From: a virus
DNA length: 64,000 nt
UHGV virus genome: UHGV-1383976
Direction: 5' to 3' (one strand)
The position numbers were made by a program, and so were the translations under genes. This document shows, one piece after another, positions 49,971-64,000 of this stretch (position 1 is its first letter; each line of letters opens with the position of its first letter). The notes under the pieces are model-generated. The model was not told where the DNA came from. It did no database searches and saw only the letters and a list, made by a program, of their open reading frames with translations.

Positions 49971-50321
49971 ATGAATTTGATTACAATTAGTAAAGCTGGA
50001 GACAATGAAGAACTTTGGACAGATAACTTAGATACATTTGAAATGTTTTATGGATTGCATATTCCAAAAAATACAAATTGGATTGAAGCTGCAAATGAAC
50101 TGACTTATGATGCTTTCAAAGTCTGGATGTATTGCGCGGCTTATCCTTTTGATAAAGAATTGGATGAAGGAATTACAAAATGGTTGTTCAATATGGATAG
50201 AGAAGATTTTTGTGCGGCAATCAATGAGTTATCTTATAAAGGTTATTTGAGAATGGATATTGGTGGTTTTCAATTTAGCCGTGATGGAAGTTGGAAATTT
50301 GCTCAGGATTCTGAACATTGA
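49971..50321 (+). CDS. hypothetical protein
   Basis: RBS taggaggg. Confidence 0.45.
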   Translation: MNLITISKAGDNEELWTDNLDTFEMFYGLHIPKNTNWIEAANELTYDAFKVWMYCAAYPFDKELDEGITKWLFNMDREDFCAAINELSYKGYLRMDIGGFQFSRDGSWKFAQDSEH

Positions 50322-51441: not shown

Positions 51442-53460
51442 AAAAAGTATAAAAAGTATAAAAAAGATAGCTTTGTGATTTTTTAGTTTTTTTATATGCT
51501 TACTCAAAGGTGCGGCCGCTGTGTAAGTTGAATTTTCCAAAAATTTGGAATGGGTATAAGTCTAACTTACCGTGATGACCTTGCGCGATGGCAACGCTGC
51601 ACCTGTAAATAAGGCAATTGTGCAAGTCAAGTCAAATGTCAAGTCGCTTGTTTCATTTGACATTTGACTTGACACATTTGACATTTGACTTGACAGTGTT
51701 GTTTGGTTTTGATATTTACCTTACTTACAATCTTACCTACACGTGTGTCTTCACCAATTTTGGTAGGAACGCCGCCCTGTAAGTAAGGTAGGAATTTTGG
51801 GATGTTAGAATTTTCCAGAAATTCGGTAAGTGCGGCGTGTTAGAAAAATTCTAGAAATTTTGGGACGTTGAAATTTTCCAAAAATTTCACCGTTGATGGA
51901 GTAAGAAAAATTGTGAAAAATTTGTGAATTTTTCAATTGGACGAAATTTTTAGGACTGCGAATTTTAGGAGAGTAAGTAAGTCTCCTACACTTTATATTG
52001 TAAGTAAGGCAGATAAGTTAACTTATAAGTAAAATATATAAGTAAGACTTATAAGTAAGACTTATAAGTTAACTGTGTGTTCTACTTATAAGTTAATTGT
52101 ATGTCCTACTTATAAGTTAACTGACAGCCCAACCTATAAGTTAACCTAGCGACAAACGGACCCAAGTCCGCCTCGCGGGAGGGAGTACAAGCTCCACCTA
52201 TAAGTCAACTGAATTCCAAACCGCGCGCCCTACTTATAAGTTAACGGGAGGGCATTGTGTGCGGGAAAGCAACTGAGCCAGCGTGTGTGTGTTGTTGTAC
52301 TGTAGCTCTCAACTGCGTAGCCAACCTATAAGTTAGCGAACACGTAAGCGAACGCCCACTCCACAACGCTTGGAAACCTAATGGTCGAGGCCTTGTGCGG
52401 GGTATGGGGAGGCGTTTTTATGACAAAAAAGGGATGGTAGTGCAAACTTTTATACAAAATCAAGTTTTTGATTTCACTATCCCAACACAATATCTTGTGG
52501 TCGACGGTTAGACGGTCGAACAGTTAGCTAACCTATAAGTAATACTTATAAGTAGGGCCTACTTAACCTTTTCTCCAATTTTTGGGGAAATTTTTTTATG
52601 TCAAATTTTGGAAACAAAATGGCGCGGCACGATTGGTTCATCAAAAATATTCTTGCCAGAAATTACCCGTAATTCCACAATTCAACTTATTAATAGTCTT
52701 GTTCGCGCACGTGTTGCCAAAACTTTTCTAGAGTCCAATCCTTCTCTCAAAAAATTTTTCGTGGCTCAGAACGAATAAAATCAGTCGTGATGGTGCGGCA
52801 ACGTTCCAGATGGGGCTTACAGGCGCGCCTTGGAAAATTTTACCAGCCGTGGTAAATTTTGGGAAATTTGTAAAATTTTGGGAACAGCTGCTAGACTGGC
52901 CGGTCGCCGCGATTCGTATCTCGCGTCATCTTTGTGCGGCCAACTCAATGGTCAGAAAAGTTGCTTTTTTTTACAATGTAGCGTTTTGTGATTTGTCATA
53001 CAATAAAAACAGAAATCGCGTATGGAAAATTTTGGAAGCACCGCACAATTATTTCCAGCTTTTCGTTTTAGCTGTTGGGTATATGAAAAATTTGGCGGCC
53101 TCGGTTTTAGGCGGTCTGGCTTTTCCAGCTTTCTCCAGCTTCTTCCAAATTTCCAAAATTTTCCAGCTTATGGTTCAGCTTTTCCAGCCGCTACAGCTGC
53201 AGCTTTTTCAGCTTTTTGACGTCGGCCCTTACGTATCGCCACAGGTGCGGCCACACAAGTAGGTATGGCCTCGCCACGGGATTACGCGCGATTGGTAAAT
53301 TCTGTAAGAAATGGTAAAATTTGGAAGCCGTGGTACTTATTGGATGAATTGTCAAATTCTGGACGAATTGTCAAATTCTGGTAAAAGAATTACCAAATTT
53401 TGGTAAAAAGAATTGTCAAATTCTGGTAAAACTTGAAAATAAAAATTTAGACTACGTTAG
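51442..53460. repeat. 2-kb repeat-rich noncoding region (multiple repeat families)
   Basis: large palindrome GTCAAGTCAAATGTCAAGTC...GACTTGACATTTGAC (51628–51700); TTTTCCAAAAATTT family; ~12× (C)CTATAAGTTAAC (51995–52560); TTTTCCAGC tandem (53090–53225); 3× GAATTGTCAAATTCTGG (53320–53425). Confidence 0.7.
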
Positions 53461-53466
53461 TCTAAA
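53446..53466 (-). promoter_or_regulatory. palindrome TTTAGACTAcgTAGTCTAAA (copy 1)
   Basis: 20-copy inverted-repeat family. Confidence 0.6.
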
Positions 53467-53502
53467 ACAAAAAAACAAAAGGAAGATTTTTCAATCTCCC
53501 TT

Positions 53503-53694
53503 TCATTTCTCATATCTTTCATAACCTATAACTTGAATTTCTTCATCTTCACCATTCACGCGTTTTATATAATAAATATTATTTTCATATTTTACAAGCA
53601 TAATTCTTACATAATCAGCATCTTCGGCGCAAGTTGAAAAAAGTCTTTCATCTTTTATAATTTCACCGTATCTAATAATTTCGTGTGAATCCAT
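53503..53694 (-). CDS. small early protein
   Basis: RBS aaaaggaga; own promoter and terminator. Confidence 0.45.
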   Translation of the reverse strand: MDSHEIIRYGEIIKDERLFSTCAEDADYVRIMLVKYENNIYYIKRVNGEDEEIQVIGYERYEK

Positions 53695-53714
53695 TTTTAA
53701 ATTCTCCTTTTCAT

Positions 53715-53781
53715 TTAGTAATTGTATTATACACCAAAATTCTAAAATGTCAAGCATTATTTTAGACTAACATAGTCTAAA
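53715..53781 (-). promoter_or_regulatory. palindrome (53761–53781) + TTGACA-N-TATAAT promoter
   Basis: minus strand: palindrome, ~20 nt, TTGACA, 16–17 nt, TATAAT, RBS, ATG. Confidence 0.6.
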
Positions 53782-53801
53782 AACAAAAAAAGGAAGATTT
53801 T

Positions 53802-54161
53802 TCAATCTTCCTCGCTCTCGTCTTTCTTCTTTGCTTCACGCTCGGCGGCTTTCGCTTCACGGCGTGCCTTATCGCGTGCTATCTTCTTCTCTTTCTCCGC
53901 GGCTTTCGCGGCGGCCTTCTCCGTCTTTTCAGCAAGTTTGAGCGCGTAGCCCTCGCGCCGTGCGTAGCAGTCGTCTCCATCCTCATCCTTCGGAATTTTT
54001 ATGACTACCTGCACACAACCTTCTTCCCCATCATCGGCAACGACAGGGAAACTAAATACACTTGCCCCTTCAAGTCCTACATCTTCGCCCATTTTCTGCG
54101 CATAGCTCATAAAAAATTCTACAAACTTCGCACGAAGAACATTAGCATTTTTAACAGTCAT
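53802..54161 (-). CDS. early protein, family A copy 1 (acidic; KIPKDEDGDDCY)
   Basis: paralog of 55717..56058. Confidence 0.5.
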   Translation of the reverse strand: MTVKNANVLRAKFVEFFMSYAQKMGEDVGLEGASVFSFPVVADDGEEGCVQVVIKIPKDEDGDDCYARREGYALKLAEKTEKAAAKAAEKEKKIARDKARREAKAAEREAKKKDESEED

Positions 54162-54204
54162 TTTCAAATTCTCCTTTTCTTATTTTGTGAGTAAAGTATA
54201 TCAC

Positions 54205-54270
54205 CATTTTCTATAAAAGTCAATAGTTATTTTTTCAATAATGCCGCGCGATTAGACTACCGTAGTCTAA
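54205..54270 (-). promoter_or_regulatory. palindrome (54252–54270) + TTGACT-17-TATACT promoter
   Basis: as above. Confidence 0.6.
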
Positions 54271-54287
54271 CTTTTATAAAGCAGGAA

Positions 54288-54533
54288 TTACTCCTGCTCA
54301 GTCATTTCATCCTCGGCAGTATCTTCTCTCCAATAAGAGCATTCCCCATCGAATTCGGCTTCTTCAAGGATATAAACCAAACCATCTCTTGCTTCTCGAA
54401 AATCCTTTTCCCATTTGCCATCTTCCTGACTGTATGCATACAGATTATCAAGAATCTTTGCGGCGTGCTTCAAGGCTTCTTCTTCTTCCGAACTAAGAAC
54501 ATACTTCTTTGAAATGCAAGTGCGAACTATCAT
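54288..54533 (-). CDS. early protein, family B copy 1
   Basis: paralog of 56190..56420 (LDNLY...G.WE.DF.EA.D). Confidence 0.5.
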   Translation of the reverse strand: MIVRTCISKKYVLSSEEEEALKHAAKILDNLYAYSQEDGKWEKDFREARDGLVYILEEAEFDGECSYWREDTAEDEMTEQE

Positions 54534-54574
54534 TTTTAAAATCTCCTTTTCATAATTTCTGAATAAATTATAAC

Positions 54575-54632
54575 ACAAATTTTTTGAAAAGTCAAGTTTT
54601 ATTTCTTTTGATTTTAGACTAAGTTAGTCTAA
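54575..54632 (-). promoter_or_regulatory. palindrome (54613–54632) + promoter
   Basis: as above. Confidence 0.55.
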
Positions 54633-54674
54633 TTATGGGATTTTGTGAAAAATTTCACAAGTTGAGTCAAAAAA

Positions 54675-54696
54675 GGAAACGTTTTACAACGTTTCC
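54675..54696 (-). terminator. rho-independent terminator
   Basis: ggaaacgtt/aacgtttcc hairpin. Confidence 0.5.
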
Positions 54697-55556
54697 ATTT
54701 TATTCAAGAAGGCTTCAACTGTTCCAAGTTCGCGGAAGGGAAAATATATAATTCCTATTTCATATTTGCCTTTTGTCCGTTTGTGAATTTCCGCGAAAAT
54801 TTTGCTTTCAATTTCTGCGTCAGAAAGTGCGGTATGCTCTTCATCAAAATCAAAATTATTTTCCAAAAAGCGAAAAGATGTTTCTGCACTTGTCTTGAAA
54901 TATTTCCCGCTTGCCGTTATCCAATCATTATTGACACAAGCCTGCTTGTATTCATCATTATTGAGTAAGTGCCGCGCCGACAAGCCCCACAAATCAAACA
55001 AAGGATAGGCAACGCCATGAAAACGGAAAACTTCGCTTTCAAATTCTTTGCGGCTTTCGTATCTTCTGCCATTTGCGATATACTCACAAGTGCGCTCTTG
55101 CAGGGCAAGCCAAGAATGAAACTGCGCGGAATAAAGATTATTTATGTAAAGCTCTGTAAATGGAATTGCTTTCTTGAAGTCAAACATTGAATTATACGCG
55201 CCTACGGCGGAAACTTCGGACAAATCGCGCTCAAGAACTGATACCGCGCGCTTCCAGTCGGTTAGCTCAATTTCGTCGCGCTCCAGCCGTTCAAGATAAA
55301 TCGGGCGTTTGCTTGCATAGTATGCGGTATCAAAAACGGCAGGAACGCTGAAAATCTCACTTATCAGAAAACTGCGGCGGCGATATACATTTCCTTTTGC
55401 GTCAATTATCTGCCATCCTAAATCATAAATAAGCGGCTTCGCAATAGCAACTTTCTGCTTCGCGTCGGCGGGCAGGTCTGCGGCGCATGGTAGTGTAGCA
55501 GTTTCACAGTCAAGAATCATGTAGTATTTGCGGCGGCGGTCGAGTCTCTTTTCCAT
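54684..55556 (-). CDS. DEDDh 3'-5' exonuclease (DnaQ-like)
   Basis: Exo I LDCETATL, Exo II YNSMFDF, Exo III HTALSDAE. Confidence 0.65.
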   Translation of the reverse strand: MEKRLDRRRKYYMILDCETATLPCAADLPADAKQKVAIAKPLIYDLGWQIIDAKGNVYRRRSFLISEIFSVPAVFDTAYYASKRPIYLERLERDEIELTDWKRAVSVLERDLSEVSAVGAYNSMFDFKKAIPFTELYINNLYSAQFHSWLALQERTCEYIANGRRYESRKEFESEVFRFHGVAYPLFDLWGLSARHLLNNDEYKQACVNNDWITASGKYFKTSAETSFRFLENNFDFDEEHTALSDAEIESKIFAEIHKRTKGKYEIGIIYFPFRELGTVEAFLNKMETL

Positions 55557-55599
55557 TTTTTTCAATTCCTTTTCATATGTTGTCAAGGGTTCGTCTTCG

Positions 55600-55693
55600 C
55601 TCCCTTGCAAGTATTATTATAGCACCACCGCGCAAGAAAGTCAATCGTTAGTTTTTTCACAAGCCCCAATTTTTAGACTAACTTAGTCTAAAA
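55600..55693 (-). promoter_or_regulatory. palindrome (55672–55693) + promoter
   Basis: as above. Confidence 0.55.
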
Positions 55694-55716
55694 AATCCAT
55701 AAAAAAGGGAACTTTT

Positions 55717-56058
55717 TCAAGTCCCCTTTTCGGCCTTTTCGGCCTTCTTCGCTTCGCGGCGCGCTTCATCCTTGGCAATTTTCTTCGCCTTTTCGGCGGC
55801 CTTCTCTTTGGCCTTCTGTGCTTTCTTCTCCTGATTCATGGCGTACTCTTTACGGCGGCTGTAGCAGTCGTCTCCATCCTCATCCTTCGGAATTTTTATG
55901 ACTACCTGCACGCTTCCTTCCTCTCCGTCATCAGCGACAACGGGGAAGCTGAAAATATTTGTGGCTTCAAGGCCAACATCTTCACCGCTTTCCTGTGCAT
56001 ACTCCATAAAAAACTTTATAAACTTTGCCCGCATTGCATTAGCATTTTTTACAGTCAT
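55717..56058 (-). CDS. early protein, family A copy 2
   Basis: paralog of 53802..54161. Confidence 0.5.
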   Translation of the reverse strand: MTVKNANAMRAKFIKFFMEYAQESGEDVGLEATNIFSFPVVADDGEEGSVQVVIKIPKDEDGDDCYSRRKEYAMNQEKKAQKAKEKAAEKAKKIAKDEARREAKKAEKAEKGT

Positions 56059-56094
56059 TTTTCAAGTCTCCTTTTCATTTAGTAATTGTATTAT

Positions 56095-56156
56095 ATCAAA
56101 AGCCGCGCTAATTGTCAATAGTTTTTTTCTGTAAATTTAGACTAAGTTAGTCTAAA
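56095..56156 (-). promoter_or_regulatory. palindrome (56136–56156) + TTGACAAT promoter
   Basis: as above. Confidence 0.6.
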
Positions 56157-56166
56157 AAATATAAAA

Positions 56167-56181
56167 GCGGGATTCTCCCGC
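56167..56181 (-). terminator. rho-independent terminator
   Basis: gcggga ttc tcccgc with a T-run on the minus strand. Confidence 0.55.
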
Positions 56182-56189
56182 ACTTAGGG

Positions 56190-56420
56190 CTAGTTAATTG
56201 AAGTATAATTTTCTTCCCAGAAAGTTCCCATATCATTCTGCTTTAACTCGTTTATAAGATAGTGGATACTATCGTTCGCTTCCTGAAAGTCGCCTTCATA
56301 CTCTCCATGTTCTTCACTCTTATTATAAAGATTGTCAAGAAGCTCTGCGGCCTTGTGGAGTGTGTTTATATCTTCATCTGAAAGAAAATAGCGTTTAGTA
56401 GAGTAAGTCTTGATAATCAT
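56190..56420 (-). CDS. early protein, family B copy 2
   Basis: paralog of 54288..54533. Confidence 0.5.
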   Translation of the reverse strand: MIIKTYSTKRYFLSDEDINTLHKAAELLDNLYNKSEEHGEYEGDFQEANDSIHYLINELKQNDMGTFWEENYTSIN

Positions 56421-56459
56421 TTTCAAAATCCTCTTTTCTTATTTTGTAAGTAAAGTATA

Positions 56460-56521
56460 GCACAATTTTTTTAAAAAGTCAAGTTTCTTTTGCTTGTGGA
56501 TTTAGACTAACTTAGTCTAAA
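56460..56521 (-). promoter_or_regulatory. palindrome (56501–56521) + TTGACT-17-TATACT promoter
   Basis: as above. Confidence 0.6.
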
Positions 56522-56548
56522 CGCATATAAAAAGACTGACGTTTTCTG

Positions 56549-56776
56549 TCAGTCAATTTCAAATACTCCGTCAATGGGAATTACTTCATGAAGTTCATTG
56601 AATGTTGTAATATCTCCATCACAAAGGCGAACTGCGTTCCATTCATTATAGTCGCTATCTTCAATAGAACTTATTTTCATATAGATACTATCTATTTCAT
56701 CAGAAAGAGCGAAGCAATCTCCGCGATTAATCATTCTATATTCTACGGACTTATTGAACTTTCTACGAATTTCCAT
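56549..56776 (-). CDS. small early protein
   Basis: RBS aaagggga. Confidence 0.45.
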   Translation of the reverse strand: MEIRRKFNKSVEYRMINRGDCFALSDEIDSIYMKISSIEDSDYNEWNAVRLCDGDITTFNELHEVIPIDGVFEID

Positions 56777-56814
56777 TTTTATTTCCCCTTTCGTTTTGTA
56801 AATATATAATACCA

Positions 56815-56871
56815 TATGCCGCACGATTTGTCAACAAGTAATTCAATCTGTTTTAGACTACAGTAGTCTAA
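56815..56871 (-). promoter_or_regulatory. palindrome (56852–56871) + promoter
   Basis: as above. Confidence 0.55.
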
Positions 56872-56880
56872 CATTAAAAA

Positions 56881-56896
56881 GACGCCTTATGGCGTC
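56881..56896 (-). terminator. terminator hairpin gacgccttatggcgtc
   Basis: GC hairpin flanked by A/T. Confidence 0.5.
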
Positions 56897-57209
56897 ATCG
56901 CATTATTTGTTCAAAAGATTCAGTATGCCCACATTCATTACAAGTGTAATAATATGTTGTACTCATTGCTGACTTTGCCGCGGCTGTAAATTCATAAGTG
57001 CCGCCACATTCACAAATCCCTTCGTTCCATCGTTCTGCTTGTCCCTCGTTTTGATGACAAAGTGCAAGAGAGATTCCAAGAGCAAGCGCAAGAGCAAGAA
57101 TTATACTAAGAATTTTCCCTATAATAGTATTACAATTTAAAACCATAATTGGGGCAATACAAATAAAGAGAAGCCCCCAAAGAATATAAAAGTAGATACT
57201 TTGAAACAT
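56895..57209 (-). CDS. membrane protein with C-terminal zinc ribbon
   Basis: 2 TM + CECGG...CNECGH. Confidence 0.45.
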   Translation of the reverse strand: MFQSIYFYILWGLLFICIAPIMVLNCNTIIGKILSIILALALALGISLALCHQNEGQAERWNEGICECGGTYEFTAAAKSAMSTTYYYTCNECGHTESFEQIMR

Positions 57210-57244
57210 TGAATCAATTCCTTTCTTAATTTTGTAATTGGATT

Positions 57245-57299
57245 ATAACATAAAATTGCGCGCTTGTCAATCCCCCCCTTTAGACTACATTAGTCTAAA
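57245..57299 (-). promoter_or_regulatory. palindrome (57279–57299) + promoter
   Basis: as above. Confidence 0.55.
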
Positions 57300-57316
57300 A
57301 AGAAAAAGAGGAAGTT

Positions 57317-57520
57317 TTATTCTTCCTCGTCAAAAATACATTCAGCAATAATTTGATGGTAATACCTCATTTTGGATTGCCAAGTGAAATATAAATCACT
57401 AATGCGTTGAAGCTCTTTACTATCTTCTTCATCTAAAATATTTTTTCGTGCGCGGTGTAAATCAGCCGAAAGAGAAAGCAAATCATCTGCAATTTTTTCT
57501 ATGCGTTCAGAATATTTCAT
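57317..57520 (-). CDS. small early protein
   Basis: RBS aaaaggaag. Confidence 0.45.
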   Translation of the reverse strand: MKYSERIEKIADDLLSLSADLHRARKNILDEEDSKELQRISDLYFTWQSKMRYYHQIIAECIFDEEE

Positions 57521-57554
57521 TATTTTAATACTTCCTTTTCTTATTGTGCCTAAA

Positions 57555-57610
57555 GTATATCATAAATCAAAAAAAATGTCAAGTCTTATTTTAGACTAAC
57601 TTAGTCTAAA
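57555..57610 (-). promoter_or_regulatory. palindrome (57588–57610) + promoter
   Basis: as above. Confidence 0.55.
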
Positions 57611-57619
57611 ACCCGAAAC

Positions 57620-57641
57620 GGAAAAGTCAATTTGACTTTCC
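57620..57641 (-). terminator. terminator hairpin ggaaaagtcaa/ttgactttcc
   Basis: hairpin + T-run. Confidence 0.5.
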
Positions 57642-58094
57642 CAAAATTTTCAGAATTTCTAACATTTCCTTTTCACTGAATGAATTTTCTCCCCATTCTT
57701 CACGATTGCGCGCTTCATCATCGAAAAGAATTGCATTTTCGTCATAGAATGAACATACAGTTGACTTCGGTGTTCCATAAGGAACAACACAAATTTCATC
57801 AAAGTGAACACTTTTCAAATGGACAGAAAGCCATTTCTTTTTTGCCGTCTCAATTTCTGCAAGGTATGCCGCGCTTGCTGTCTTGCTTCCCCAAGAAACA
57901 ATACAAAGTTTATATCCCATCTTCTTCAATTTGTTCAACTGTCGCGCGAGTATGCGCATATTGCCGAGTGGGTCTGCGTGCAGATAAGGGCCGACTAATT
58001 TCATTTGCAAATTGTCAAGCCAATTAGGGAACGAATAAAAATCAACTATTGTACCATCCATATCGAAATAAAGTGCAGGCTTGCGATTATACAT
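57627..58094 (-). CDS. HAD-family 5'(3')-deoxyribonucleotidase (NT5C / T5 Dmp-like)
   Basis: N-terminal FDMDGTIVDF HAD motif I. Confidence 0.65.
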   Translation of the reverse strand: MYNRKPALYFDMDGTIVDFYSFPNWLDNLQMKLVGPYLHADPLGNMRILARQLNKLKKMGYKLCIVSWGSKTASAAYLAEIETAKKKWLSVHLKSVHFDEICVVPYGTPKSTVCSFYDENAILFDDEARNREEWGENSFSEKEMLEILKILGKSN

Positions 58095-58129
58095 AAAACA
58101 TAATTTCCTTTCTTATTTTGTAAAATAAG

Positions 58130-58195
58130 TATAACATAATTATGCGGTTTTGTCAAGTTGCTTTTGCTTGTGATTTTAGACTATCTTAGTCTAAA
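58130..58195 (-). promoter_or_regulatory. palindrome (58175–58195) + promoter
   Basis: as above. Confidence 0.55.
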
Positions 58196-58211
58196 TTTAT
58201 TCAAAAAAAAT

Positions 58212-58228
58212 GGGCGGATTCCCCGCCC
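58212..58228 (-). terminator. terminator gggcgg attcc ccgccc + T8
   Basis: hairpin + T-run on the minus strand. Confidence 0.6.
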
Positions 58229-58253
58229 GATTTTCATTTTTATTTTTCCTTTC

Positions 58254-58526
58254 TTAAATTTCTACAGAAACTTTTTCATATCCATCGGCGTCGAAATCAT
58301 CCCATGCGACGTCTTCCATTTCTTTCATAAAGTCAGCGCGAACGCCTTTCTTTTCGTCTTCACTCATGTAAAACAAGCAAAGATGAGAATAATTTTCAAA
58401 AAGCCAATCGCTAAAATTATCGTCGCTTACCGTGTTAGGGTAGTATTCATTTTCTATGGTTTCTTGCGCTTGCTTTTCATTGAGAATTATACCTTTCTCC
58501 CAATTCACATAAAGATTAGCTAACAT
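58254..58526 (-). CDS. small acidic early protein
   Basis: RBS + ATG. Confidence 0.45.
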   Translation of the reverse strand: MLANLYVNWEKGIILNEKQAQETIENEYYPNTVSDDNFSDWLFENYSHLCLFYMSEDEKKGVRADFMKEMEDVAWDDFDADGYEKVSVEI

Positions 58527-58564
58527 TTTATCAATTCCTTTCTTGTTTTCTGTGTCTATTATAC

Positions 58565-58623
58565 TATATGATTTTTAGTTTGTCAATAAGTTTTTCTTTC
58601 TGTTTTAGACTAAAGTAGTCTAA
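58565..58623 (-). promoter_or_regulatory. palindrome (58604–58623) + promoter
   Basis: as above. Confidence 0.55.
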
Positions 58624-58683
58624 TTTTATAAAAAATCTAAAAGGCGGGAGTCCGTCCTTTAGTTTTAAGTTTATTAAAATTTC

Positions 58684-58830
58684 TTAAATTCTTTTTAGCA
58701 AATGCCAAGAACCAATACGGAAAACTACGCGATAAATGCGGCGTCCAATGCGAACCCATTCGTTTCTTCGGAATTTATTGTTTAATGCTCCACCGAAATC
58801 CCAACCGCAGTAACCGAAAATTTCATTCAT
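58684..58830 (-). CDS. small basic early protein (48 aa; not in ORF track)
   Basis: hand-translated MNEIFGYCGWDFGG...; own promoter TTGACA-17-TATAAT + RBS aaaggaag. Confidence 0.35.
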   Translation of the reverse strand: MNEIFGYCGWDFGGALNNKFRRNEWVRIGRRIYRVVFRIGSWHLLKRI

Positions 58831-58864
58831 TGCGTTCACTTCCTTTTCTTGATTACATTATATC

Positions 58865-58920
58865 ACATTTTTAGAGAATGTCAATAATTATTTTTTGATA
58901 TATTAGACTAACTTAGTCTA
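58865..58920 (-). promoter_or_regulatory. palindrome (58902–58920) + promoter
   Basis: as above. Confidence 0.55.
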
Positions 58921-58944
58921 AATTTTTAAAAAAGGGAAGATTTT

Positions 58945-59250
58945 TTAATCTCCCCTTTTATCATAACGGAGCACAAGTTCAAAATCATCATAACTGTCTA
59001 TATAGTGTGCAGTTTGTGGTTCAATTCCAAAGTCCTCGCATACATCCACGGCGGGGGTATCTTCAAAATAATAACAGGTGTCGTGGAAGCTGCTAGTTAT
59101 ATCAATAACAGGAAGTTTATTATTCTCGCCAACTTGACTACCAACAATAAGAAATTTCGGCTCACCTGTTTCATTGCTTCCATGAATTGCATAAAGATTT
59201 TTTATTCCAGTCCGTCCATTTATTACTTTATTAACTTCAAATCTAACCAT
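58945..59250 (-). CDS. small early protein
   Basis: RBS aaaaggaga. Confidence 0.45.
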   Translation of the reverse strand: MVRFEVNKVINGRTGIKNLYAIHGSNETGEPKFLIVGSQVGENNKLPVIDITSSFHDTCYYFEDTPAVDVCEDFGIEPQTAHYIDSYDDFELVLRYDKRGD

Positions 59251-59284
59251 TTTCAAATCTCCTTTTCGTTTTGTGAGTATATAA

Positions 59285-59346
59285 TATCATATATTGTATA
59301 GTTTGTCAATAGAATTTTCAGAAATTTTTAGACTAACTTAGTCTAA
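59285..59346 (-). promoter_or_regulatory. palindrome (59327–59346) + promoter
   Basis: as above. Confidence 0.55.
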
Positions 59347-59364
59347 CTTTCCCCCTAAAAAAAG

Positions 59365-59385
59365 AAATGGGATTATCTCCCATTT
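59365..59385 (-). terminator. terminator aaatggga ttatc tcccattt
   Basis: 8-bp stem + T-run. Confidence 0.55.
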
Positions 59386-59394
59386 CTCTTCGGT

Positions 59395-59766
59395 TTACTT
59401 CTCAACGAAATAAACCTTGCGCTTGCCCACCTTCGGGAACTTGCGCTCTTCCACGCTGATAAGGCCGTCCTTCACAAGTCCACGCGCAATCGCGCCCGCC
59501 TTGTTGTGCGTGACTTCAAGAGCTTCGCCGAGTTCGGTTTCCGTCAGACCGTCACAGCCATCAGCCGACAGTGCTTCGATAATGCCCGCGCGGATAGGCG
59601 CGTTCTCAGTTGCGGACTTCTCGGCGGCCTTGCTCTTGCGCGTATCGTTCCGGCGGTCGAGACTTGCGAGAGCTTCCACGCAATATGCGTTCAGCTCGTC
59701 AGTCAGGTCGTACTTCTCCATCATGGTGGTGTAGAATTCGCGTGCAGTCATCTTCTTGTCGTTCAT
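59395..59766 (-). CDS. GC-rich winged-helix-like protein (paralog of 49386..49760)
   Basis: marked GC excess vs neighbours; aligns with 49386 protein. Confidence 0.5.
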   Translation of the reverse strand: MNDKKMTAREFYTTMMEKYDLTDELNAYCVEALASLDRRNDTRKSKAAEKSATENAPIRAGIIEALSADGCDGLTETELGEALEVTHNKAGAIARGLVKDGLISVEERKFPKVGKRKVYFVEK

Positions 59767-59839
59767 GGTATTTCCTTTCTTAATGGCGCTAAGGTCGCCG
59801 CCCTTATTAGTGAGGGACTTTATCTCCCCTTCACGATTA

Positions 59840-59907
59840 TTATTATATCACAATATCGCGGAAAGTCAACAATTATTTTTCTGGGATTTAGACTAACTTA
59901 GTCTAAA
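59840..59907 (-). promoter_or_regulatory. palindrome (59887–59907) + promoter
   Basis: as above. Confidence 0.55.
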
Positions 59908-59922
59908 TTTTATACAAAAAAG

Positions 59923-59938
59923 AGCGGGTTCCCCGCTC
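59923..59938 (-). terminator. terminator gagcggg ttcc ccgctc
   Basis: hairpin + T-run. Confidence 0.55.
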
Positions 59939-60158
59939 ATTCTTCGATTATAAGTTTATGTTTTACTTCGCAACATATTTCATTGTTATCGACAAAAAAC
60001 AGTTCTCCATTGTCAAGATACATAGCATTGCCTTCATCTGTTGTATCAGTTTTTATGAAAAATTCATTAGGATCGATTTTCTTTACAAGAACAGTCCCGC
60101 GCGGAAAGTAGTCAAATGTTTTATTCTTCTTTTCATTGCGCAAATCTTCAATTATCAT
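59937..60158 (-). CDS. small early protein
   Basis: RBS gaaggaga. Confidence 0.45.
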   Translation of the reverse strand: MIIEDLRNEKKNKTFDYFPRGTVLVKKIDPNEFFIKTDTTDEGNAMYLDNGELFFVDNNEICCEVKHKLIIEE

Positions 60159-60199
60159 TTTTTTATTCTCCTTCAAAAATTTATTTATTTTTTACTGTG

Positions 60200-60271
60200 C
60201 TTATATAATATCATATATAATGTAATTTGTCAATAAAATTTTCAGAAATTTTTAGACTAACTTAGTCTAAA
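60200..60271 (-). promoter_or_regulatory. palindrome (60251–60271) + promoter
   Basis: as above. Confidence 0.55.
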
Positions 60272-60297
60272 ATTCCAGAAAAACCAAAAGGTGGAAA

Positions 60298-60687
60298 TTA
60301 CTTTCCACCAATTGGGCACACGGTTAAGCCGTGTTCTTTAAGGTATTGAATTGCTTTTTCTCCGTCATGGTATTCAAGAATTTGTTGAATTGATGGATGT
60401 GCTTCATCATATTCATTAACTACTACAATATCAATTTCGGGATTTTTCTTTTCTGTTGCAATAGGAAGAAGGCTATCATAATAGCCAAAACGTCGAAGAC
60501 CTTTTCTATTAGTTTCTACCGCAACATCGTTTGTCAAACAGTTATGATGTGCCCATTCGAGCAAATCCCAACTACCGTATTTTATAGATTCTTCTGGAAT
60601 TTCATCGGCAAGTTGGAAATTCGTGCGGCGATTGCACAAAATTTCTTTATTGTAAAAGATAGTTATAAACCGGTAGAACGCTTTCAT
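60298..60687 (-). CDS. hypothetical early protein
   Basis: RBS ggaaaggaag; second gene of a two-gene unit. Confidence 0.45.
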   Translation of the reverse strand: MKAFYRFITIFYNKEILCNRRTNFQLADEIPEESIKYGSWDLLEWAHHNCLTNDVAVETNRKGLRRFGYYDSLLPIATEKKNPEIDIVVVNEYDEAHPSIQQILEYHDGEKAIQYLKEHGLTVCPIGGK

Positions 60688-60905
60688 TTCGTTGCTTCCT
60701 TTCCAATGCCAAATATAAGCTTTACAAGCCACAAAACAAGCCACATCAAAAATGCGGTTTTGGCGCTGAAGGCGAACGCGATAACGCCCAGCTTAGTGAG
60801 CGCCCACCACAGCACCCAAATAAGCCCCAAGGTGATACCTGCGCTAATTGCAGACAAAAGCGTAACAATGAGAATTCCAAGAATTACAGCAATCGTTTTA
60901 TTCAT
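60684..60905 (-). CDS. small membrane protein (2–3 TM)
   Basis: hydrophobic; RBS ggaaaggaa. Confidence 0.4.
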   Translation of the reverse strand: MNKTIAVILGILIVTLLSAISAGITLGLIWVLWWALTKLGVIAFAFSAKTAFLMWLVLWLVKLIFGIGKEATK

Positions 60906-60939
60906 TTTATTAATTCCTTTCCGGTTTTGTGAGTCAAGT

Positions 60940-61002
60940 ATAACACATAAATTTTGGTTTGTCAATAGATTTTGGAAGAAAGGTTAGACTAAGGTAGTCT
61001 AA
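60940..61002 (-). promoter_or_regulatory. palindrome (60984–61002) + promoter
   Basis: as above. Confidence 0.55.
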
Positions 61003-61020
61003 ATTTTGAGCGGGAACTTT

Positions 61021-61332
61021 TCAGTTCCCTTTGTTCCAATCTTCAGAAATGCGATCAAAGACTTCTTCAGACGTAAGCCAACCCTCAACAGAATCGCCAT
61101 TGCGAGTCAGGCCCATTATTTCGAGAAGCCCTTCTTCATGCCCATAACTGCCGCTATGGCAAACTGCGTCACAAATCAATTCATCTCCGTGGCCGTAATA
61201 CCGCACAGAGGGCATCCCCCAAATATATTCTATTCGATAGGGAATTTTTGCCTCTTGCAGAAACCACTCAAGCTTGCCCATTTCAATATATTCTATTTCA
61301 ATTCCATACGAGTCCTTCTTTATTAATTCCAT
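61021..61332 (-). CDS. small early protein (Cys/His-rich)
   Basis: RBS aaaaggaga. Confidence 0.45.
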   Translation of the reverse strand: MELIKKDSYGIEIEYIEMGKLEWFLQEAKIPYRIEYIWGMPSVRYYGHGDELICDAVCHSGSYGHEEGLLEIMGLTRNGDSVEGWLTSEEVFDRISEDWNKGN

Positions 61333-61374
61333 TTTTGAAAATCTCCTTTTCTTATTGTATTTATATAATATCAC

Positions 61375-61431
61375 AAAATTTTTCGTAAATCAACCCACAA
61401 AAATTTCCAATTTAGACTAAGATAGTCTAAA
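61375..61431 (-). promoter_or_regulatory. palindrome (61411–61431) + promoter
   Basis: as above. Confidence 0.55.
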
Positions 61432-61460
61432 AACTCTGAAAAAGTTTGAGCTTCATCGGC

Positions 61461-61640
61461 TCAAACAAATTCTGCAAAAGAGCGTTCCACAGCTCCTGCA
61501 TCTTCACGGCAGCACTCAATCCTTATCAGGTTATCGCCTAGGTGCTCTACAAAGCAGGGGATGTTAGCTTCCAGCAGATTCATTGCTCGAATAAATTCGG
61601 GCGCGTTCGCATCTTCAACATAAATTTCCTTTATATACAT
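61461..61640 (-). CDS. small early protein (59 aa; not in ORF track)
   Basis: hand-translated MYIKEIYVEDANAPEF...; RBS agaaaggaa; terminator gtttgagc/gctcaaac. Confidence 0.35.
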   Translation of the reverse strand: MYIKEIYVEDANAPEFIRAMNLLEANIPCFVEHLGDNLIRIECCREDAGAVERSFAEFV

Positions 61641-61679
61641 TTGGTAATCAATTCCTTTCTCTCAATTTCTGTATTCATT

Positions 61680-61744
61680 ATATCACAAATTTTCTATAAT
61701 GTCAAATCCATTTTCTTTCCAATTTAGACTATGATAGTCTAAAA
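61680..61744 (-). promoter_or_regulatory. palindrome (61723–61744) + promoter
   Basis: as above. Confidence 0.55.
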
Positions 61745-61783
61745 CAAAATTTTTGTAAAAAAATGAGCGGGAGTCAATCCCGC

Positions 61784-62065
61784 TCAATTCCAGCCGCGCA
61801 TTTTCCAGCACAGAGCATTGCCCGGCTGCCCGTAGCAGATGTTCGGATGCAGGATAACCTCGCCTTCGAGGATTCCGAGCTTTTCGTAGAATTCCTCAAT
61901 CAGCACATCGGTAGCCTCAATGCGCGCCTGCTCCAGCGTGTCGGCTGATGGAGCTTCCAGCTCTCCCCAGCTAATAAGGATACTATTCACAATCGGCGGC
62001 AGGCGGTGAGCGTTCGCGGCAACGTAGGCGCAGAGTTCGTTGTAGTTTATGGCGGTAGTAGTCAT
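61784..62065 (-). CDS. hypothetical protein (GC-rich)
   Basis: ORF; RBS. Confidence 0.45.
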   Translation of the reverse strand: MTTTAINYNELCAYVAANAHRLPPIVNSILISWGELEAPSADTLEQARIEATDVLIEEFYEKLGILEGEVILHPNICYGQPGNALCWKMRGWN

Positions 62066-62099
62066 TGGAAAATCCCCTTTTCAAGTATGCCTAATTCTA

Positions 62100-62160
62100 C
62101 CACACATTTGCGGAAAGGTCAATGGCAGAAAATTTCCAATTTAGACTATCATAGTCTAAA
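62100..62160 (-). promoter_or_regulatory. palindrome (62140–62160) + promoter (last copy)
   Basis: as above. Confidence 0.55.
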
Positions 62161-62209
62161 TCGCTAGTTTGTGAAATAACTAACGAACTTTTCCAAGAAA
62201 AAGGAACGG

Positions 62210-62542
62210 TCAAATGACCGCTCCGATTTTCCCCATTTTCTGCCATTTTGTAATTGTTTTCCAGTTTTCTGACGCTTGCCGCACAAGCGATAAAGGCGCG
62301 TTTTTGTCGTGCGCGCTGTATATGTCATTGATTTGTTTGACTGTCGCAGGATAGAACGTTATCAAAATACCGCGTTTCCCGCGCACAAACACTATTGCGC
62401 GGTCGGTAATGTCAACAGTTGCGCGGCGTTCGCTGTCATAGAATGATTCATACGTCTGCCCGATACCAAGTTCAGATATGAGAAGCGCGCGGTCGGCACG
62501 CTCTGAACTAACGTGCCGACTTGCGCGCCGTGCTTTATACAT
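62210..62542 (-). CDS. hypothetical protein (GC-rich)
   Basis: ORF; terminator hairpin 62203–62226. Confidence 0.4.
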   Translation of the reverse strand: MYKARRASRHVSSERADRALLISELGIGQTYESFYDSERRATVDITDRAIVFVRGKRGILITFYPATVKQINDIYSAHDKNAPLSLVRQASENWKTITKWQKMGKIGAVI

Positions 62543-62626
62543 TGTGCGTTTGGTCGTAGAGCATACCGCCTATTAAGCCGACAGCTCCAAGGAAGGCAAG
62601 GATAGCGAAACCAAGTGTAAAGTACA

Positions 62627-62902
62627 TCATTCGCCCTCCTTCAGCATTTGGAACTTGTCATACAAGTCCCAGCTTACATACACGACCAGTTCAGGCCAAC
62701 GGGGGCTATCATAGCTCAAGCGGGCGCTCAAGCTTGCGACTGTTGCCGTGTCCAGCTCATCTTCAGACCACCAGCGGCCATATACGCTGTATCCGTCCTG
62801 CCCGTTGTGAGTCGCGTTTTCTAGCCGATAACCAGTCGTTGCTTCATACACGCAGATATGGTTATCCTGCTGGTTCAGGCTTTTTAACTGTCCAAGTGTC
62901 AT
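62627..62902 (-). CDS. hypothetical protein (GC-rich)
   Basis: ORF. Confidence 0.4.
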   Translation of the reverse strand: MTLGQLKSLNQQDNHICVYEATTGYRLENATHNGQDGYSVYGRWWSEDELDTATVASLSARLSYDSPRWPELVVYVSWDLYDKFQMLKEGE

Positions 62903-62960
62903 TTTAATGTTCTCCTTTCTAAAATTGGGCGGCTGATTAGAGCCGCCCTTGTTCTTCTTG

Positions 62961-63662
62961 TCAAACCGTCTCCGGCAAAGTCATTCCGTCAAATTCGCGG
63001 ATATCGTAGACAGCTTCCGGATTGTAAACATAGCCATAGTTTTCAGCGTACCATGCAAGGAACTTGTGCCATCCTTTATTGCTGGTCTGAATGGAGCGTT
63101 CTTCTTTCGGTCTGCCATGCTTGTCGAAGCCCGTCAGCGTTCTAATCTTGCCGAACTTCTCAAGCCCTGCAAGGAAAAACCACACAGGCATGAGAAGCGC
63201 AGGTGTATGAACTTCCGGAGCTATTCCGGTGAGCTTGGACGGCTTGCCCGTCCAATCAAGACGATAAACCACGAAACGCGGCTTCCCGTCATTCTTCTGA
63301 TATTGCAGGCCACGGTAAAGGCTTTCAACACGTCCGCCGCAGGTTTTGCACTCAAGCGGGCAGAAAACCTTCTGTCCGTCAATCATTACCTGCACAGTGT
63401 TATCCACGTAGCCGTCAAGCGCTACATCCATTTTCTGACTGCGTTCGCGCGTCATTTCAAGCTCAAAAGCGCGGCCACGCGCGCCACAGTTCACGCCTTC
63501 AGCAGGCGCAAGCCCTTCCGACTCTTCCCAGCGCTGAAGATAATAGTTAAGGTTCTTCGCGCGTTCAATCTGGTATTTGTTCATATGCAACTTCCTTTCT
63601 AAATTTGTTGTTTGTTCCCGCTCTGCGGCGTCCACTCCGCGCGGGCGATGTTCAATTTTCAA
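62961..63662 (-). CDS. hypothetical protein (GC-rich, 233 aa)
   Basis: ORF; promoter TTGACT-17-TATAAT at ~63700–63740 with half-site TTTAGACT. Confidence 0.45.
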   Translation of the reverse strand: MKIEHRPRGVDAAEREQTTNLERKLHMNKYQIERAKNLNYYLQRWEESEGLAPAEGVNCGARGRAFELEMTRERSQKMDVALDGYVDNTVQVMIDGQKVFCPLECKTCGGRVESLYRGLQYQKNDGKPRFVVYRLDWTGKPSKLTGIAPEVHTPALLMPVWFFLAGLEKFGKIRTLTGFDKHGRPKEERSIQTSNKGWHKFLAWYAENYGYVYNPEAVYDIREFDGMTLPETV

Positions 63663-63934
63663 AGTTCAATCTTTGCTTTGGGGCTTGTCTCTTGCCCCTT
63701 TGCAATTATGATTATAGCACTTTCCGCGCGAAAGTCAAGGATTTTTAGACTGAAAAATCACACAAGAAAACACTTATTTTTCGGCCCGTTTTTGTTCAAA
63801 ATGACGGACAAACTATTACCAAACTTTTACTAGAACTTTCCTAAAATTTACAAATGACAAATTGTGAAATATTTAACAAGCTGGGGCGCCCATATTTTGG
63901 TAAATGGGCTTCCAGTTTCTTCCAGTGGGTCGGG

Positions 63935-64000
63935 GCCTCCAAACAAATTTGCAAAAATTTCAAAATTCAAATTTGCAAAAATTTCAAAATTCAAATTTGC
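63935..64000. repeat. tandem direct repeat CAAATTTGCAAAAATTTCAAAATT (≥2.5 copies, continues past the window end)
   Basis: exact 26-nt period. Confidence 0.6.

Follow-up and report, generated by a model that had tools for sequence, protein, structure and literature searches.

The question raised by positions 53,467 to 62,209 of the virus genome UHGV-1383976 is whether its many very small genes, each apparently carrying a promoter and a terminator of its own, are independent of one another or are controlled as a set. The window analyzed here is the whole 64,000-nucleotide (64-kb) stretch of one strand of this genome, and all positions are given in it. The original prediction, made without database searches, described an array of about 20 tiny single-gene transcription units reminiscent of the first-step-transfer (FST) region of phage T5. 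The results showed that the promoters of 19 units are each preceded by one and the same inverted repeat, referred to here as the dyad or operator, and we regard it as on balance probable that the region is a co-ordinately controlled early array of interchangeable cassettes of the host-takeover type.

The dyad is the most non-random feature of the region and was absent from the original prediction. A pattern search of the window found 20 perfect copies of TAGACTA-N3-TAGTCTA in comparison to 0.13 expected, and all of them fall within 53448-62158; the full 21-bp form reads TTTAGACTA-N3-TAGTCTAAA. No other copy was found in the window even when 2 mismatches were allowed, and half-sites outside the array occurred at chance level. 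The two arms (2 x 8-9 bp) carry maximal information and are invariant, the 3-bp centre is free, and the spacers between dyad and promoter share a mutual identity of 43% only. Invariant arms combined with a free centre and unrelated spacers are the footprint that would be expected of a symmetric protein dimer, and not of duplication or gene conversion.

All plausible open reading frames (ORFs) in 53503-63662 are carried by the minus strand, and the palindrome-bearing part (53448-62158, minus strand) comprises 19 transcription units with 20 ORFs plus a terminal copy of the operator. With start codons refined, the array ORFs encode 48 to 290 amino acids (aa) and the isoelectric point (pI) is below 5 for 13 of the 20, in agreement with the minus-strand, mostly acidic products of 48 to 300 aa described before. 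The expected number of about 20 single-gene units was also close, but unit 4 has two ORFs and the block extends upstream to an operon of four ORFs. Promoters were scanned by matching TTGACA-16/17-TATAAT with a score out of 12, and sites scoring at least 11/12 were taken as strong. The scan gave 58 promoter-like sites in 50.5-64 kb, in comparison to 34.5 expected. Strong minus-strand sites numbered 16 between 53.7 and 63.7 kb (14 with an extended -10 TG), of which 15 belong to palindrome-tagged units and one to the upstream operon, and about 6 strong sites, both strands summed, were found in the remaining 54 kb of the window. Terminator-like sites numbered 35 in comparison to 12.5 expected, and nearly all units end in a hairpin of -10 to -25 kcal/mol, usually leading into a T-tract. 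The claim that each unit has a strong promoter and terminator of its own was borne out by these near-consensus sigma-A promoters and hairpins, except that three units, with ends at about 54.64, 61.00, and 62.16 kb, have a weaker terminator motif or one slightly farther upstream of the next palindrome.

In nearly all units the order of elements on the minus strand is terminator hairpin, dyad, A/T-rich spacer, TTGACA-17-TGnTATAAT, AAAGGAG as a strong ribosome-binding site, and ATG with the small ORF, and the dyad usually abuts the T-tract of the preceding terminator or lies within a few bases of it. The paralogous pairs noticed earlier are real (77% identity between the ORFs of units 18 and 15, and 41% between those of units 17 and 14), and the cassettes of units 5 and 7 are duplicates with 89% identity. 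A megablast comparison of the array with 50,697 phage records gave no match, and a Pfam search with 23 array ORFs and their neighbours gave a sub-threshold HAD match only. PHROG matches of the array ORFs were mostly to families of unknown function, and the distant protein relatives found were in Enterococcus Herelleviridae-type phages and gut phages.

The 19-bp form of the window's dyad (type A), TTAGACTA-N3-TAGTCTAA, was present in multiple copies in five IMG/VR contigs, all from one metagenome: IMGVR_UViG_3300045988_158127 (125.8 kb, 18 copies), IMGVR_UViG_3300045988_159271 (132.4 kb, 19 copies), 181059 (74.9 kb, 23 copies), 169513 (122 kb, 8 copies), and 167376 (94.8 kb, 5 copies). The window is 85% to 93% identical to the first two, which are its close relatives in what follows. 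More distant phages, found through homologs of the 123-aa protein of the array, have the same cassette design with other operators, namely type B, TTAGACGT-N3-ACGTCTAA (TAGACGT-N3-ACGTCTA), in the loci L018, L020, L021, and L025, and type C, TTAGGCGT-N3-ACGCCTAA (TAGGCGT), in L026. A metagenome scan for the TAGACGT type returned at least 120 contigs, most of them with arrays, and a scan of IMG/VR for the type-C operator returned only chance single matches. A repeat with no relation to these operators, AGACGTCSGACGTCT, was seen in diverse non-phage metagenome contigs, where it is often present as several copies close together (L096, L099, L106, L111, L127, L140, L151, and others), and it is the source of most single-copy matches to the type-B pattern among the matches listed. 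Recurrent protein families were limited to four when 101 loci with dyads were compared: a winged-helix protein (47 loci), a DEDDh exonuclease (44), a 113/121-aa family (43), and a HAD phosphatase (31).

The distance between the dyad and the -35 box proved to be as regular as the dyad itself. In the window it is 19 nt in 12 units, 20 in two, 9 in two, 10 in one, and 29 in two, which places the dyad centre near -53, -63, or -73, on the same face of the helix. When six type-A genomes were pooled, the spacers were 9 (18 cases), 19 (40), 29 (5), and 11 (7). Among 374 unique type-B dyads from the independent metagenome matches listed, 250 have a strong promoter within 60 nt, and their spacing peaks at 8-10 (137), 19-20 (25), 29-33 (45), and 39-42 (17), so that helical phasing is a property of the family. 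The sites thus have the spacing of class-I-type operators, upstream of -35 and at distances differing by whole helical turns. No dyad precedes the operon of four ORFs that heads the block.

For the function of the array, we consider that one-by-one host-type consensus promoters in front of tiny orphan genes are the signature of Firmicutes phage early takeover regions, which by analogy supports placing the array in the same category, and that it is likely an early region of the host-takeover type. Host sigma-A RNA polymerase would fire all units immediately after DNA entry. A dimeric protein of winged-helix type would then occupy each operator on the same helix face as the polymerase and, from its class-I-like position, would act on the polymerase through the C-terminal domain of the alpha subunit (alpha-CTD) or the upstream promoter (UP) element zone, whereby the whole set would be switched together. 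Given that a protein binds, the sign of the control is more probably negative than positive, because the core promoters are already near-consensus. Negative control would mean a shut-off of early, probably toxic, genes after the early phase, and it could work by over-stabilizing the polymerase, as p4 of phage phi29 does at A2c, or by occluding the UP element. A protein sitting just past each terminator might also block read-through and thereby keep the genes independent units.

Precedents exist for several of these steps. The p4 protein of phi29 represses from an upstream-bound position at the strong A2c promoter. The early promoters of phi29 carry p4 sites and are also under the control of host Spo0A, which suppresses the lytic cycle (PMC2731898), and the T5 record states that A1 is needed for the shut-off of the pre-early genes. 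On the reading proposed here, the array and phi29 would have in common strong early promoters under a dimeric protein upstream of, or next to, the core promoter, and in both a virulent phage may carry sites for a host factor within its early promoters, as is documented for phi29 (PMC2731898). They differ in that phi29 has three early promoters with varied site arrangements, in comparison to 19 promoters, one exact site, and quantized spacing here.

Which protein binds the dyad was approached from the phage side and from the host side. Among the phage proteins, the family of the ORFs at 59395-59766 and 49347-49760 is a quite possible binder, for which we hold a tentative preference. The first of these (123 aa) was modeled by AlphaFold2 (AF2) with a predicted local distance difference test (pLDDT) score of 87 and has a winged-helix C-terminal domain with H-H-H-beta-beta topology. 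Foldseek related it to MarR, TFE, and ArsR-like winged helix-turn-helix (wHTH) folds with probability 1.0 and weak E-values of 2e-3 to 1e-2, and a search of PDB sequences gave nothing significant. It is 98% conserved in the close relatives and belongs to the most widespread family of the array (47 of the 101 loci), with THNKAG and PKVGKRK invariant in its closer homologs. The second paralog (49347-49760, plus strand, 137 aa; hmmsearch E = 3e-10) lies across the noncoding region from the array and is driven by another promoter class (TATAATATATATGTAAG at 49303); equivalent second paralogs adjoin the arrays in L018, L020, and L021.

Across the phage family, the promoters of winged-helix genes carry the dyad in 7 of 25 cases, in comparison to 174 of 290 for the other strong promoters. 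These genes are also preceded by a conserved 5' leader, found at 59767-59840 (minus strand) in the window and before both paralogs in L018, L020, L021, L024, L026, L149, L175, L116, L205, and L143. Its layout is a first hairpin of the GAGGACAGGAACCUC type, GGGU, and a second hairpin with a conserved ACCNA loop. Both hairpins are supported by compensatory changes. In the stem of the second they are AGUG/CACU, AGCG/CGCU, GGUG/CACC, and UGCG/CGCA, and RNAalifold gave double changes in 6 of 9 pairs. The leader is therefore a candidate autoregulatory RNA element, and depletion of the dyad together with a private structured leader would fit a regulator that stands outside its own regulon. The co-variation test failed for the 123-aa protein as the binder, in that the same operator occurs with diverse recognition helices and different operators occur with near-identical DNA-binding domains. 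A third wHTH ORF (49935-50321, plus strand), adjacent to the noncoding region, was rejected as a candidate, being a variable accessory gene that is absent in type-B phages and reaches an hhalign probability of 26% only. Its relatives carry a BlaI-like 'RRTTYY' helix, and contig 159271 has two divergent tandem alleles of it (L003 5151-5510 and 5531-5908), one with RRTTYY...DLKDKGYL.

From the host side, the type-A dyad was searched in 185,579 species genomes. It was found at 68 loci, about the chance expectation. These include a conserved class of at least 11 loci in which the 19-bp dyad overlaps the -10 of the promoter of a gene for a 120-aa repressor of the Penicillinase_R family. The members of this class are Lacrimispora (5 genomes), Hungatella, a Eubacterium, Scybalomonas, and metagenome-assembled genomes (MAGs) labelled Lachnospiraceae, Paenibacillaceae, and uncultured bacterium. 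In the locus checked, a BlaR1-type M56 peptidase gene follows (Pfam Penicillinase_R 2e-23, Peptidase_M56 1e-46). By this comparison the phage type-A dyad is identical to what appears to be the autoregulatory operator of a BlaI/BlaR1-type system, mostly of Lachnospiraceae, and a BlaI homolog of 45% identity has the analogous dyad GTTTAC-N5-GTAAAC. The likeness to BlaI/MecI/CopY operators extends to all fixed positions of the 19-bp dyad. The arrangement differs, since the bacteria have a single site over the -10 of the repressor's own gene and the phage has 20 copies, placed upstream of -35.

It is possible on this basis, though doubtful, that the binder is a host repressor of the BlaI/MecI family. 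Early transcription would then be gated by the host: the repressor would be present at entry and be inactivated by a BlaR1-type sensor protease, and the state of the host would decide whether the early programme runs, an explanation we consider less probable than not by a clear distance. Besides the identity of the site in at least 11 genomes, it is favored by the nature of BlaI-family proteins, which are dimeric winged-helix repressors binding such dyads, by the phi29/Spo0A precedent (PMC2731898), and by the change of operator type between phages with nearly identical winged-helix proteins, which a host repressor would explain. Searches for a BlaI homolog in the window and about 120 phage loci found none, and a search of IMG/VR gave one unrelated contig; about half of the phage genome was examined, and a BlaI-like gene of the phage could exist. 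Against a host repressor, the BlaI link was seen for operator type A only, the phage operator at -53 to -73 is unlike the host operator that overlaps -10, and the MAG bins holding fragments of such phages are Acutalibacteraceae and an unclassified Clostridia bacterium.

A wider form of this idea, which we regard as somewhat unlikely, is that the whole takeover programme (about 19 promoters) of a large, virulent-type phage infecting Clostridia of the gut or rumen is wired to a host repressor of BlaI/BlaR1 type, that envelope or antibiotic-type signalling would decide between infection and dormancy, and that phage lineages would have retuned some 20 operators (A, B, and C) to their own hosts; or, as the mirror image, that a phage factor copies the BlaI specificity and would silence the host blaI-blaR1 regulon together with the phage's own early genes. 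A binder that is neither the phage winged helix nor a host BlaI/MecI protein we hold to be about as doubtful as the host repressor itself.

Several observations weigh against the co-ordinately controlled early array with a winged-helix or BlaI-type binder. The term 'early' is drawn from promoter type only, and a site as far upstream as -53 to -73 leaves the core promoter free; simple repression is therefore not the obvious outcome, and the dyads could also serve activation or pure insulation. The recognition helix of the phage winged-helix protein is very variable among phages with an identical operator, operators differ between phages whose DNA-binding domains are nearly identical (TAGACGT in L021, which has P0039, and TAGGCGT in L026, which has P0034), and L024 has a winged-helix protein and no palindromes at four promoters. 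For a host binder, none of 31 single-copy type-B sites among the metagenome matches listed lies beside a BlaI-like gene. In addition, a dyad with 8-bp arms has 65,536 forms only, and its identity with a bacterial operator could be due to chance.

The dyads might instead be mainly signals of recombination or mobility, either like the promoter early stem-loops (PeSLs) of T4-type phages or because a site-specific enzyme acts on them; they would then play no part in transcription and would owe their uniformity to cassette spread or gene conversion, which we consider unlikely. In the comparison of the window with its two close relatives, 14 of 24 ends of homology blocks are no more than 30 nt, and 19 of 24 no more than 60 nt, away from a dyad centre, whereas random placement gave 3.3 ends within 30 nt and a maximum of 11 in 2000 trials. 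The gene content of the array is highly mosaic, with four recurring families only, and the PeSLs, composite terminator/promoter motifs, mediate exactly such shuffling in T4-type phages (PMC2839356, PMC4122927). Judging from these block ends, the cassettes are also the junctions at which related phages gain, lose, and exchange ORFs. As a complete explanation, recombination fares less well. Gene conversion would homogenize the 3-bp centre and the flanks, yet the centre is free and the spacers are unrelated; the 10-bp quantized distance to -35 is unexplained by recombination; and 17-21 bp is short for homologous exchange. The array and the PeSL regions have in common a composite of terminator and early promoter between small variable ORFs, with indels and replacements that start and end at the cassettes. 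Composite cassettes and coincidence of breakpoints were thus both found here, and a T4-like lineage and the PeSL consensus were not. Phage lineage and host phylum differ, and the array has an extra, perfectly conserved, phased dyad between terminator and promoter that PeSLs do not have, a position that points to a bound regulator.

The explanation offered by the original prediction, in which the array lies in a terminal stretch injected first, as in the T5 FST region, and the repeats form an injection-stop signal, is likewise improbable in our judgment. Part of the comparison stood, since small, mostly orphan genes on host-type promoters do adjoin 2 kb of repeat-rich noncoding DNA, and repeat-dense noncoding DNA was confirmed on both flanks (51.44-53.45 kb and 63.94-64.0 kb). 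The array also has a HAD phosphatase with a PHROG annotation as deoxyribonucleotidase, and T5 for its part has a dedicated pre-early shut-off. The start of contig 169513 (L006 1-43) and the end of contig 167376 (L017 14237-14307), from two distant relatives, lie within 30 nt of each other in equivalent repeat DNA. This shared break is the one hint of a nearby terminus, and it may reflect either a true genome end or an artefact of assembly; a fold-back structure (TCTCTTCTTCGTCC GAAG GACGATGAAGAGA) is present where contig 167376 ends, and the end sequence of 169513 was found in IMG/VR only there and at the end of 167376, with no terminal-repeat copy, that is, no second copy of the putative end. 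Other evidence speaks against a terminal position. In the two close relatives the array is found mid-contig, at 58-69 kb of 125.8 kb and 62-71 kb of 132.4 kb, with divergent genes flanking it, and it is internal, with genes on both sides, in at least five long contigs, contigs from ENA included. No array protein matched T5 1-11000 at E <= 0.1 by tblastn, and no homologs of dmp, A1, and A2 were thus detected. T5 has few promoters (2 sites of at least 11/12 in the FST region), polycistronic units, and no dispersed dyad, and the injection-stop role of the repeats is pure analogy.

The two enzymes named in the original prediction were also examined. The product of the ORF at 57627-58094, which was called Dmp-like, is probably a HAD-superfamily phosphatase (Pfam Hydrolase E = 5e-4, 21 bits, under the cut-off of 26.4) and matches PHROG 2643, '5'-3' deoxyribonucleotidase', with E = 1.4e-9 over residues 49-137, but with T5 Dmp only the 10 aa of motif I (DxDGT) could be aligned (E = 0.15), and PDB sequences matched only at E > 0.1. 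The DnaQ-like exonuclease (54684-55556) retained its assignment at the level of motifs. It has Exo I (DxE), Exo II (Nx2-3[FY]D), and Exo III (Hx4D), and the residues D16, E18, N122, F125, D126, H241, and D246 are invariant in 7 sequences, down to 29% identity; it matches PHROG 20187 with E = 9e-31 and has distant homologs in Enterococcus Herelleviridae-type phages, one of which is annotated as an exodeoxyribonuclease, but it gave no Pfam match and no PDB sequence or profile match.

That the dyad acts as a nucleic-acid structure, either an RNA hairpin or a DNA hairpin promoter like that of the virion RNA polymerase of phage N4, whose early promoters are hairpins with 3-nt loops, is very improbable, for although the dyad could on paper form a stem of 9 bp and a loop of 3 nt, it is largely untranscribed (downstream of the preceding T-tract and upstream of the next start site, the position on which an RNA-level role was rejected), is followed by A's and not T's and by a full consensus sigma-A promoter at fixed phase, and no virion RNA polymerase was seen in the window.

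Phage P1 likewise applies a single repressor specificity to many of its promoters, through the dispersed operators of the C1 regulon. The P1 operators are asymmetric and overlap the core promoters, and P1 is a phage-plasmid with a temperate life style. In the array, by comparison, the sites are symmetric and lie upstream of the promoters, and the window showed no lysogeny genes. Closer in content are the host-takeover module described for Bacillus phage SPO1 (PMC10531801) and the early regions of Kayvirus and other Herelleviridae. Like SPO1, the phage studied here is a Firmicutes phage of about 125-135 kb in which some 20-24 genes, small and mostly orphan, are split into many short units, each under a strong early promoter of sigma-A type and closed by a terminator; such genes are presumed to disable the host (PMC10531801, PMC7698491). 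Early promoters of the form TTGACW / TRTGN / TATANT have been verified by RNA-seq in Kayvirus (PMC7698491). A dense cluster of small orphan genes with sigma-A promoters and terminators was found in the array, and homology to gp37-gp60 was not: no array protein matched SPO1 1-13300 (gp37-gp60) at E <= 0.1 by tblastn. The SPO1 module lies in a 13-kb terminal redundancy with 5 promoter sites of at least 11/12, has no invariant or dispersed dyad, and is shut off through gp44, gp50, and gp51 and sigma replacement, not through a common operator. By analogy, the array would in function resemble the SPO1 takeover module more than the T5 FST region; in evolutionary behaviour it is like the T4 PeSL regions, and the operator makes it a distinct variant.

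The units are given below in the direction of transcription, all on the minus strand. The spacer between dyad and -35 is 19 in units 1-5, 7-9, 13, 15, and 17, 20 in units 10 and 14, 9 in units 11 and 19, 10 in unit 12, and 29 in units 16 and 18. Unit 1 (61764..62158) has its operator at 62142-62158, a promoter at 62122-62094 (TTGACC-17-TAGAAT), an ORF at 61784-62065 (93 aa, pI 4.5), and a terminator at 61764-61786. In unit 2 (61444..61741) the operator (61725-61741) and a 12/12 promoter (61705-61677) are followed by an ORF for 59 aa (61461-61640) and a terminator (61444-61466). Unit 3 (61012..61429) consists of an operator at 61413-61429, a promoter at 61393-61365 (TTGATT-17-TATTAT), an ORF at 61021-61332 (103 aa), and a hairpin at 61012-61029. 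The two ORFs of unit 4 (60290..61001; operator 60985-61001, promoter 60965-60937, terminator 60290-60309) encode a hydrophobic, probably membrane, protein of 73 aa (60684-60905) and a protein of 129 aa (60298-60687).

Unit 5 (59922..60269) has an operator at 60253-60269, a promoter at 60233-60205, an ORF of about 73 aa at 59937-60158, and a terminator at 59922-59938. The winged-helix gene (59395-59766, 123 aa) makes up unit 6 (59363..59905), with operator 59889-59905, promoter 59869-59842, the structured leader of about 75 nt, and terminator 59363-59387. Unit 7 (58930..59345), the duplicate of unit 5, has operator 59329-59345, promoter 59309-59281, an ORF at 58945-59250 (101 aa, pI 4.6), and a hairpin at about 58932-58957. 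The spacers of units 5 and 7 (60234-60252 and 59310-59328) read AAAATTTCTGAAAATT(T/C)TA, one mismatch from the consensus of the CodY box, AATTTTCWGAAAATT. Two units with 12/12 promoters follow: unit 8 (58640..58920), with operator 58904-58920, promoter 58884-58857, an ORF for a basic product of 48 aa (58684-58830, pI 11.3), and a terminator at about 58643-58660, and unit 9 (58212..58622), with operator 58606-58622, promoter 58586-58558, an ORF for 90 aa of pI 4.1 (58254-58526), and terminator 58212-58228.

The gene for the probable HAD phosphatase (57627-58094, 155 aa, motif I FDMDGT) forms unit 10 (57612..58193) together with operator 58177-58193, promoter 58156-58128, and a hairpin at about 57615-57640. 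Unit 11 (57308..57608) has operator 57592-57608, promoter 57582-57554, an ORF at 57317-57520 (67 aa), and terminator 57308-57328. The 104-aa product of unit 12 (56881..57297; operator 57281-57297, 12/12 promoter 57270-57242, ORF 56895-57209, terminator 56881-56896) has a hydrophobic N-terminal half and then a Zn-ribbon-like CECGG...CNECGH. Unit 13 (56534..56870) carries operator 56854-56870, promoter 56834-56806, an ORF of about 75 aa at 56549-56776 that belongs to PHROG 7832 (function unknown), and terminator 56534-56554, and unit 14 (56167..56519) carries operator 56503-56519, promoter 56482-56454, an ORF at 56190-56420 (76 aa, the paralog of the unit 17 ORF), and terminator 56167-56181.

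Unit 15 (55702..56154; operator 56138-56154, 12/12 promoter 56118-56090, terminator 55702-55731) encodes a 113-aa member (55717-56058) of a core family of about 115 aa, which combines an acidic alpha-beta3 domain with a K/E/A-rich helix of 45 residues and often has two or three paralogs per phage; its AF2 model is confident (pLDDT 90), and no fold match was found in PDB by Foldseek. The exonuclease (290 aa) is encoded by unit 16 (54675..55690), with operator 55674-55690, promoter 55644-55616, and terminator 54675-54696. A perfect palindrome resembling a Rex box, TTGTGAAATTTTTCACAA, was seen at 54643-54660, past the terminator of unit 16 and before the operator of unit 17, and a related sequence, TTGTGAAAAA, is inside the 29-nt spacer of unit 16 (about 55660). 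Unit 17 (54272..54631) has operator 54615-54631, promoter 54595-54567, an ORF at 54288-54533 (81 aa, pI 4.3), and a hairpin at about 54275-54296. The second core-family gene of the array (53802-54161, 119 aa, the paralog of the unit 15 ORF) belongs to unit 18 (53790..54269), with operator 54253-54269, promoter 54223-54195, and terminator 53790-53813. Unit 19 (53470..53779) closes the series with operator 53763-53779, a 12/12 promoter at 53753-53726, an ORF at 53503-53694 (63 aa), and terminator 53470-53511.

The terminal operator copy (53448..53464) comes after this last terminator, has no strong promoter behind it, and abuts four GAATTGTCAAATTCTGGTAAAA repeats (53346-53431); relatives share this arrangement (e.g., L018 14429). 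The four repeats are 22-23 nt long, lie directly past the terminal operator, and each have a TTGACA box that lacks a -10 partner, and analogous CAAATTTTGAC repeats occur at the same place in relatives (L018, about 14446-14540). They could be iterons, a sink for RNA polymerase, or the site of another protein.

At the other end, the operon without operator (62203..63738, minus strand, GC content 46-48%) has a promoter at 63738-63711 (TTGACT-16-TGcTATAAT) and a terminator at 62203-62224. Its minus-strand ORFs are at 62961-63584 (207 aa), 62627-62902 (91 aa), 62535-62630 (31 aa, hydrophobic), and 62210-62542 (110 aa, pI 10.1); none has a Pfam match, and the operon is conserved only in the two close relatives. 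An isolated half-site, CAGTCTAAAAA, was observed at 63740-63760, 7 nt upstream of the -35 of this operon. Beyond it, a divergent intergenic region, about 0.45 kb in length, starts with 63739..64000 and has a tandem repeat of 24 nt at 63944-64000, and in relatives the genes beyond this region run the opposite way.

The noncoding region on the far side of the array (51442..53447) is 2.0 kb long, repeat-dense, and located between convergent gene blocks; the GC skew changes sign at 52-53 kb, where the minus-strand block meets the plus-strand block. Its repeat families are CATTTGACATTTGACTTGACA, ACTTATAAGTTAAC (with a 24-nt period), GCTTTTCCA, and GAATTGTCAAATTCTGG (four copies). The region is 80% to 81% identical in close relatives and gave no Rfam or tRNA match.

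The rest of the window is clearly phage, with genes for a helicase, an ATP-dependent ligase, RtcB, and tail proteins. We also observed a ROOL RNA (272 bits) at 17153-17800 (plus strand) with a sigma-A-like promoter before it at 17030, two group I introns at 20207-20482 and 33075-33424 (both plus strand), and 15 tRNA genes (10786-19159 and 39142-40150), two of which have odd anticodon loops. A second promoter class, AAAATTTGATTTTTT-N12-TATAATATATATAGAAA, which equals TTGATT-17-TATAAT and is followed by an invariant ATATATAG, gave 23 matches in the window in comparison to 0.6 expected; it drives the remainder of the genome and is not used in the array. Exact plus-strand copies are at 10130, 16119, 35335, 37593, 39111, 40233, 43546, 47072, and 47731, and plus-strand copies with 1-3 mismatches at 7699, 10760, 17053, 49303, and other positions; the class was also seen at L018 14600-14700. 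The exact copies and most copies with 1-2 mismatches lie outside the array, and the four 3-mismatch matches inside it (54556, 56795, 58547, and 61666) coincide with the TATAAT boxes of promoters of the array. In a distant relative the motif is conserved to about 85%. Promoters of this kind probably belong to another temporal class or depend on another factor.

Early takeover regions are the main reservoir of anti-host and anti-defence proteins, and their timing and silencing are known for a handful of model phages. One invariant dyad on one helix face before each array promoter is a simple regulatory logic that could be read from sequence alone, and the uncultivated phages that share it, from gut and rumen, form a widespread family with more than 100 contigs in metagenomes. 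The dyad gives a rule for recognizing early cassettes in metagenomic phages. The 21-bp dyad may also serve as a probe for fishing out the regulator, and for Clostridia the array may offer naturally occurring expression cassettes that are strong, insulated, and regulated together. The breakpoints at cassette boundaries would extend the PeSL principle of shuffling from T4-type phages to Firmicutes phages, and the identity of the dyad with a BlaI operator raises the possibility that a signalling repressor of the host gates infection.

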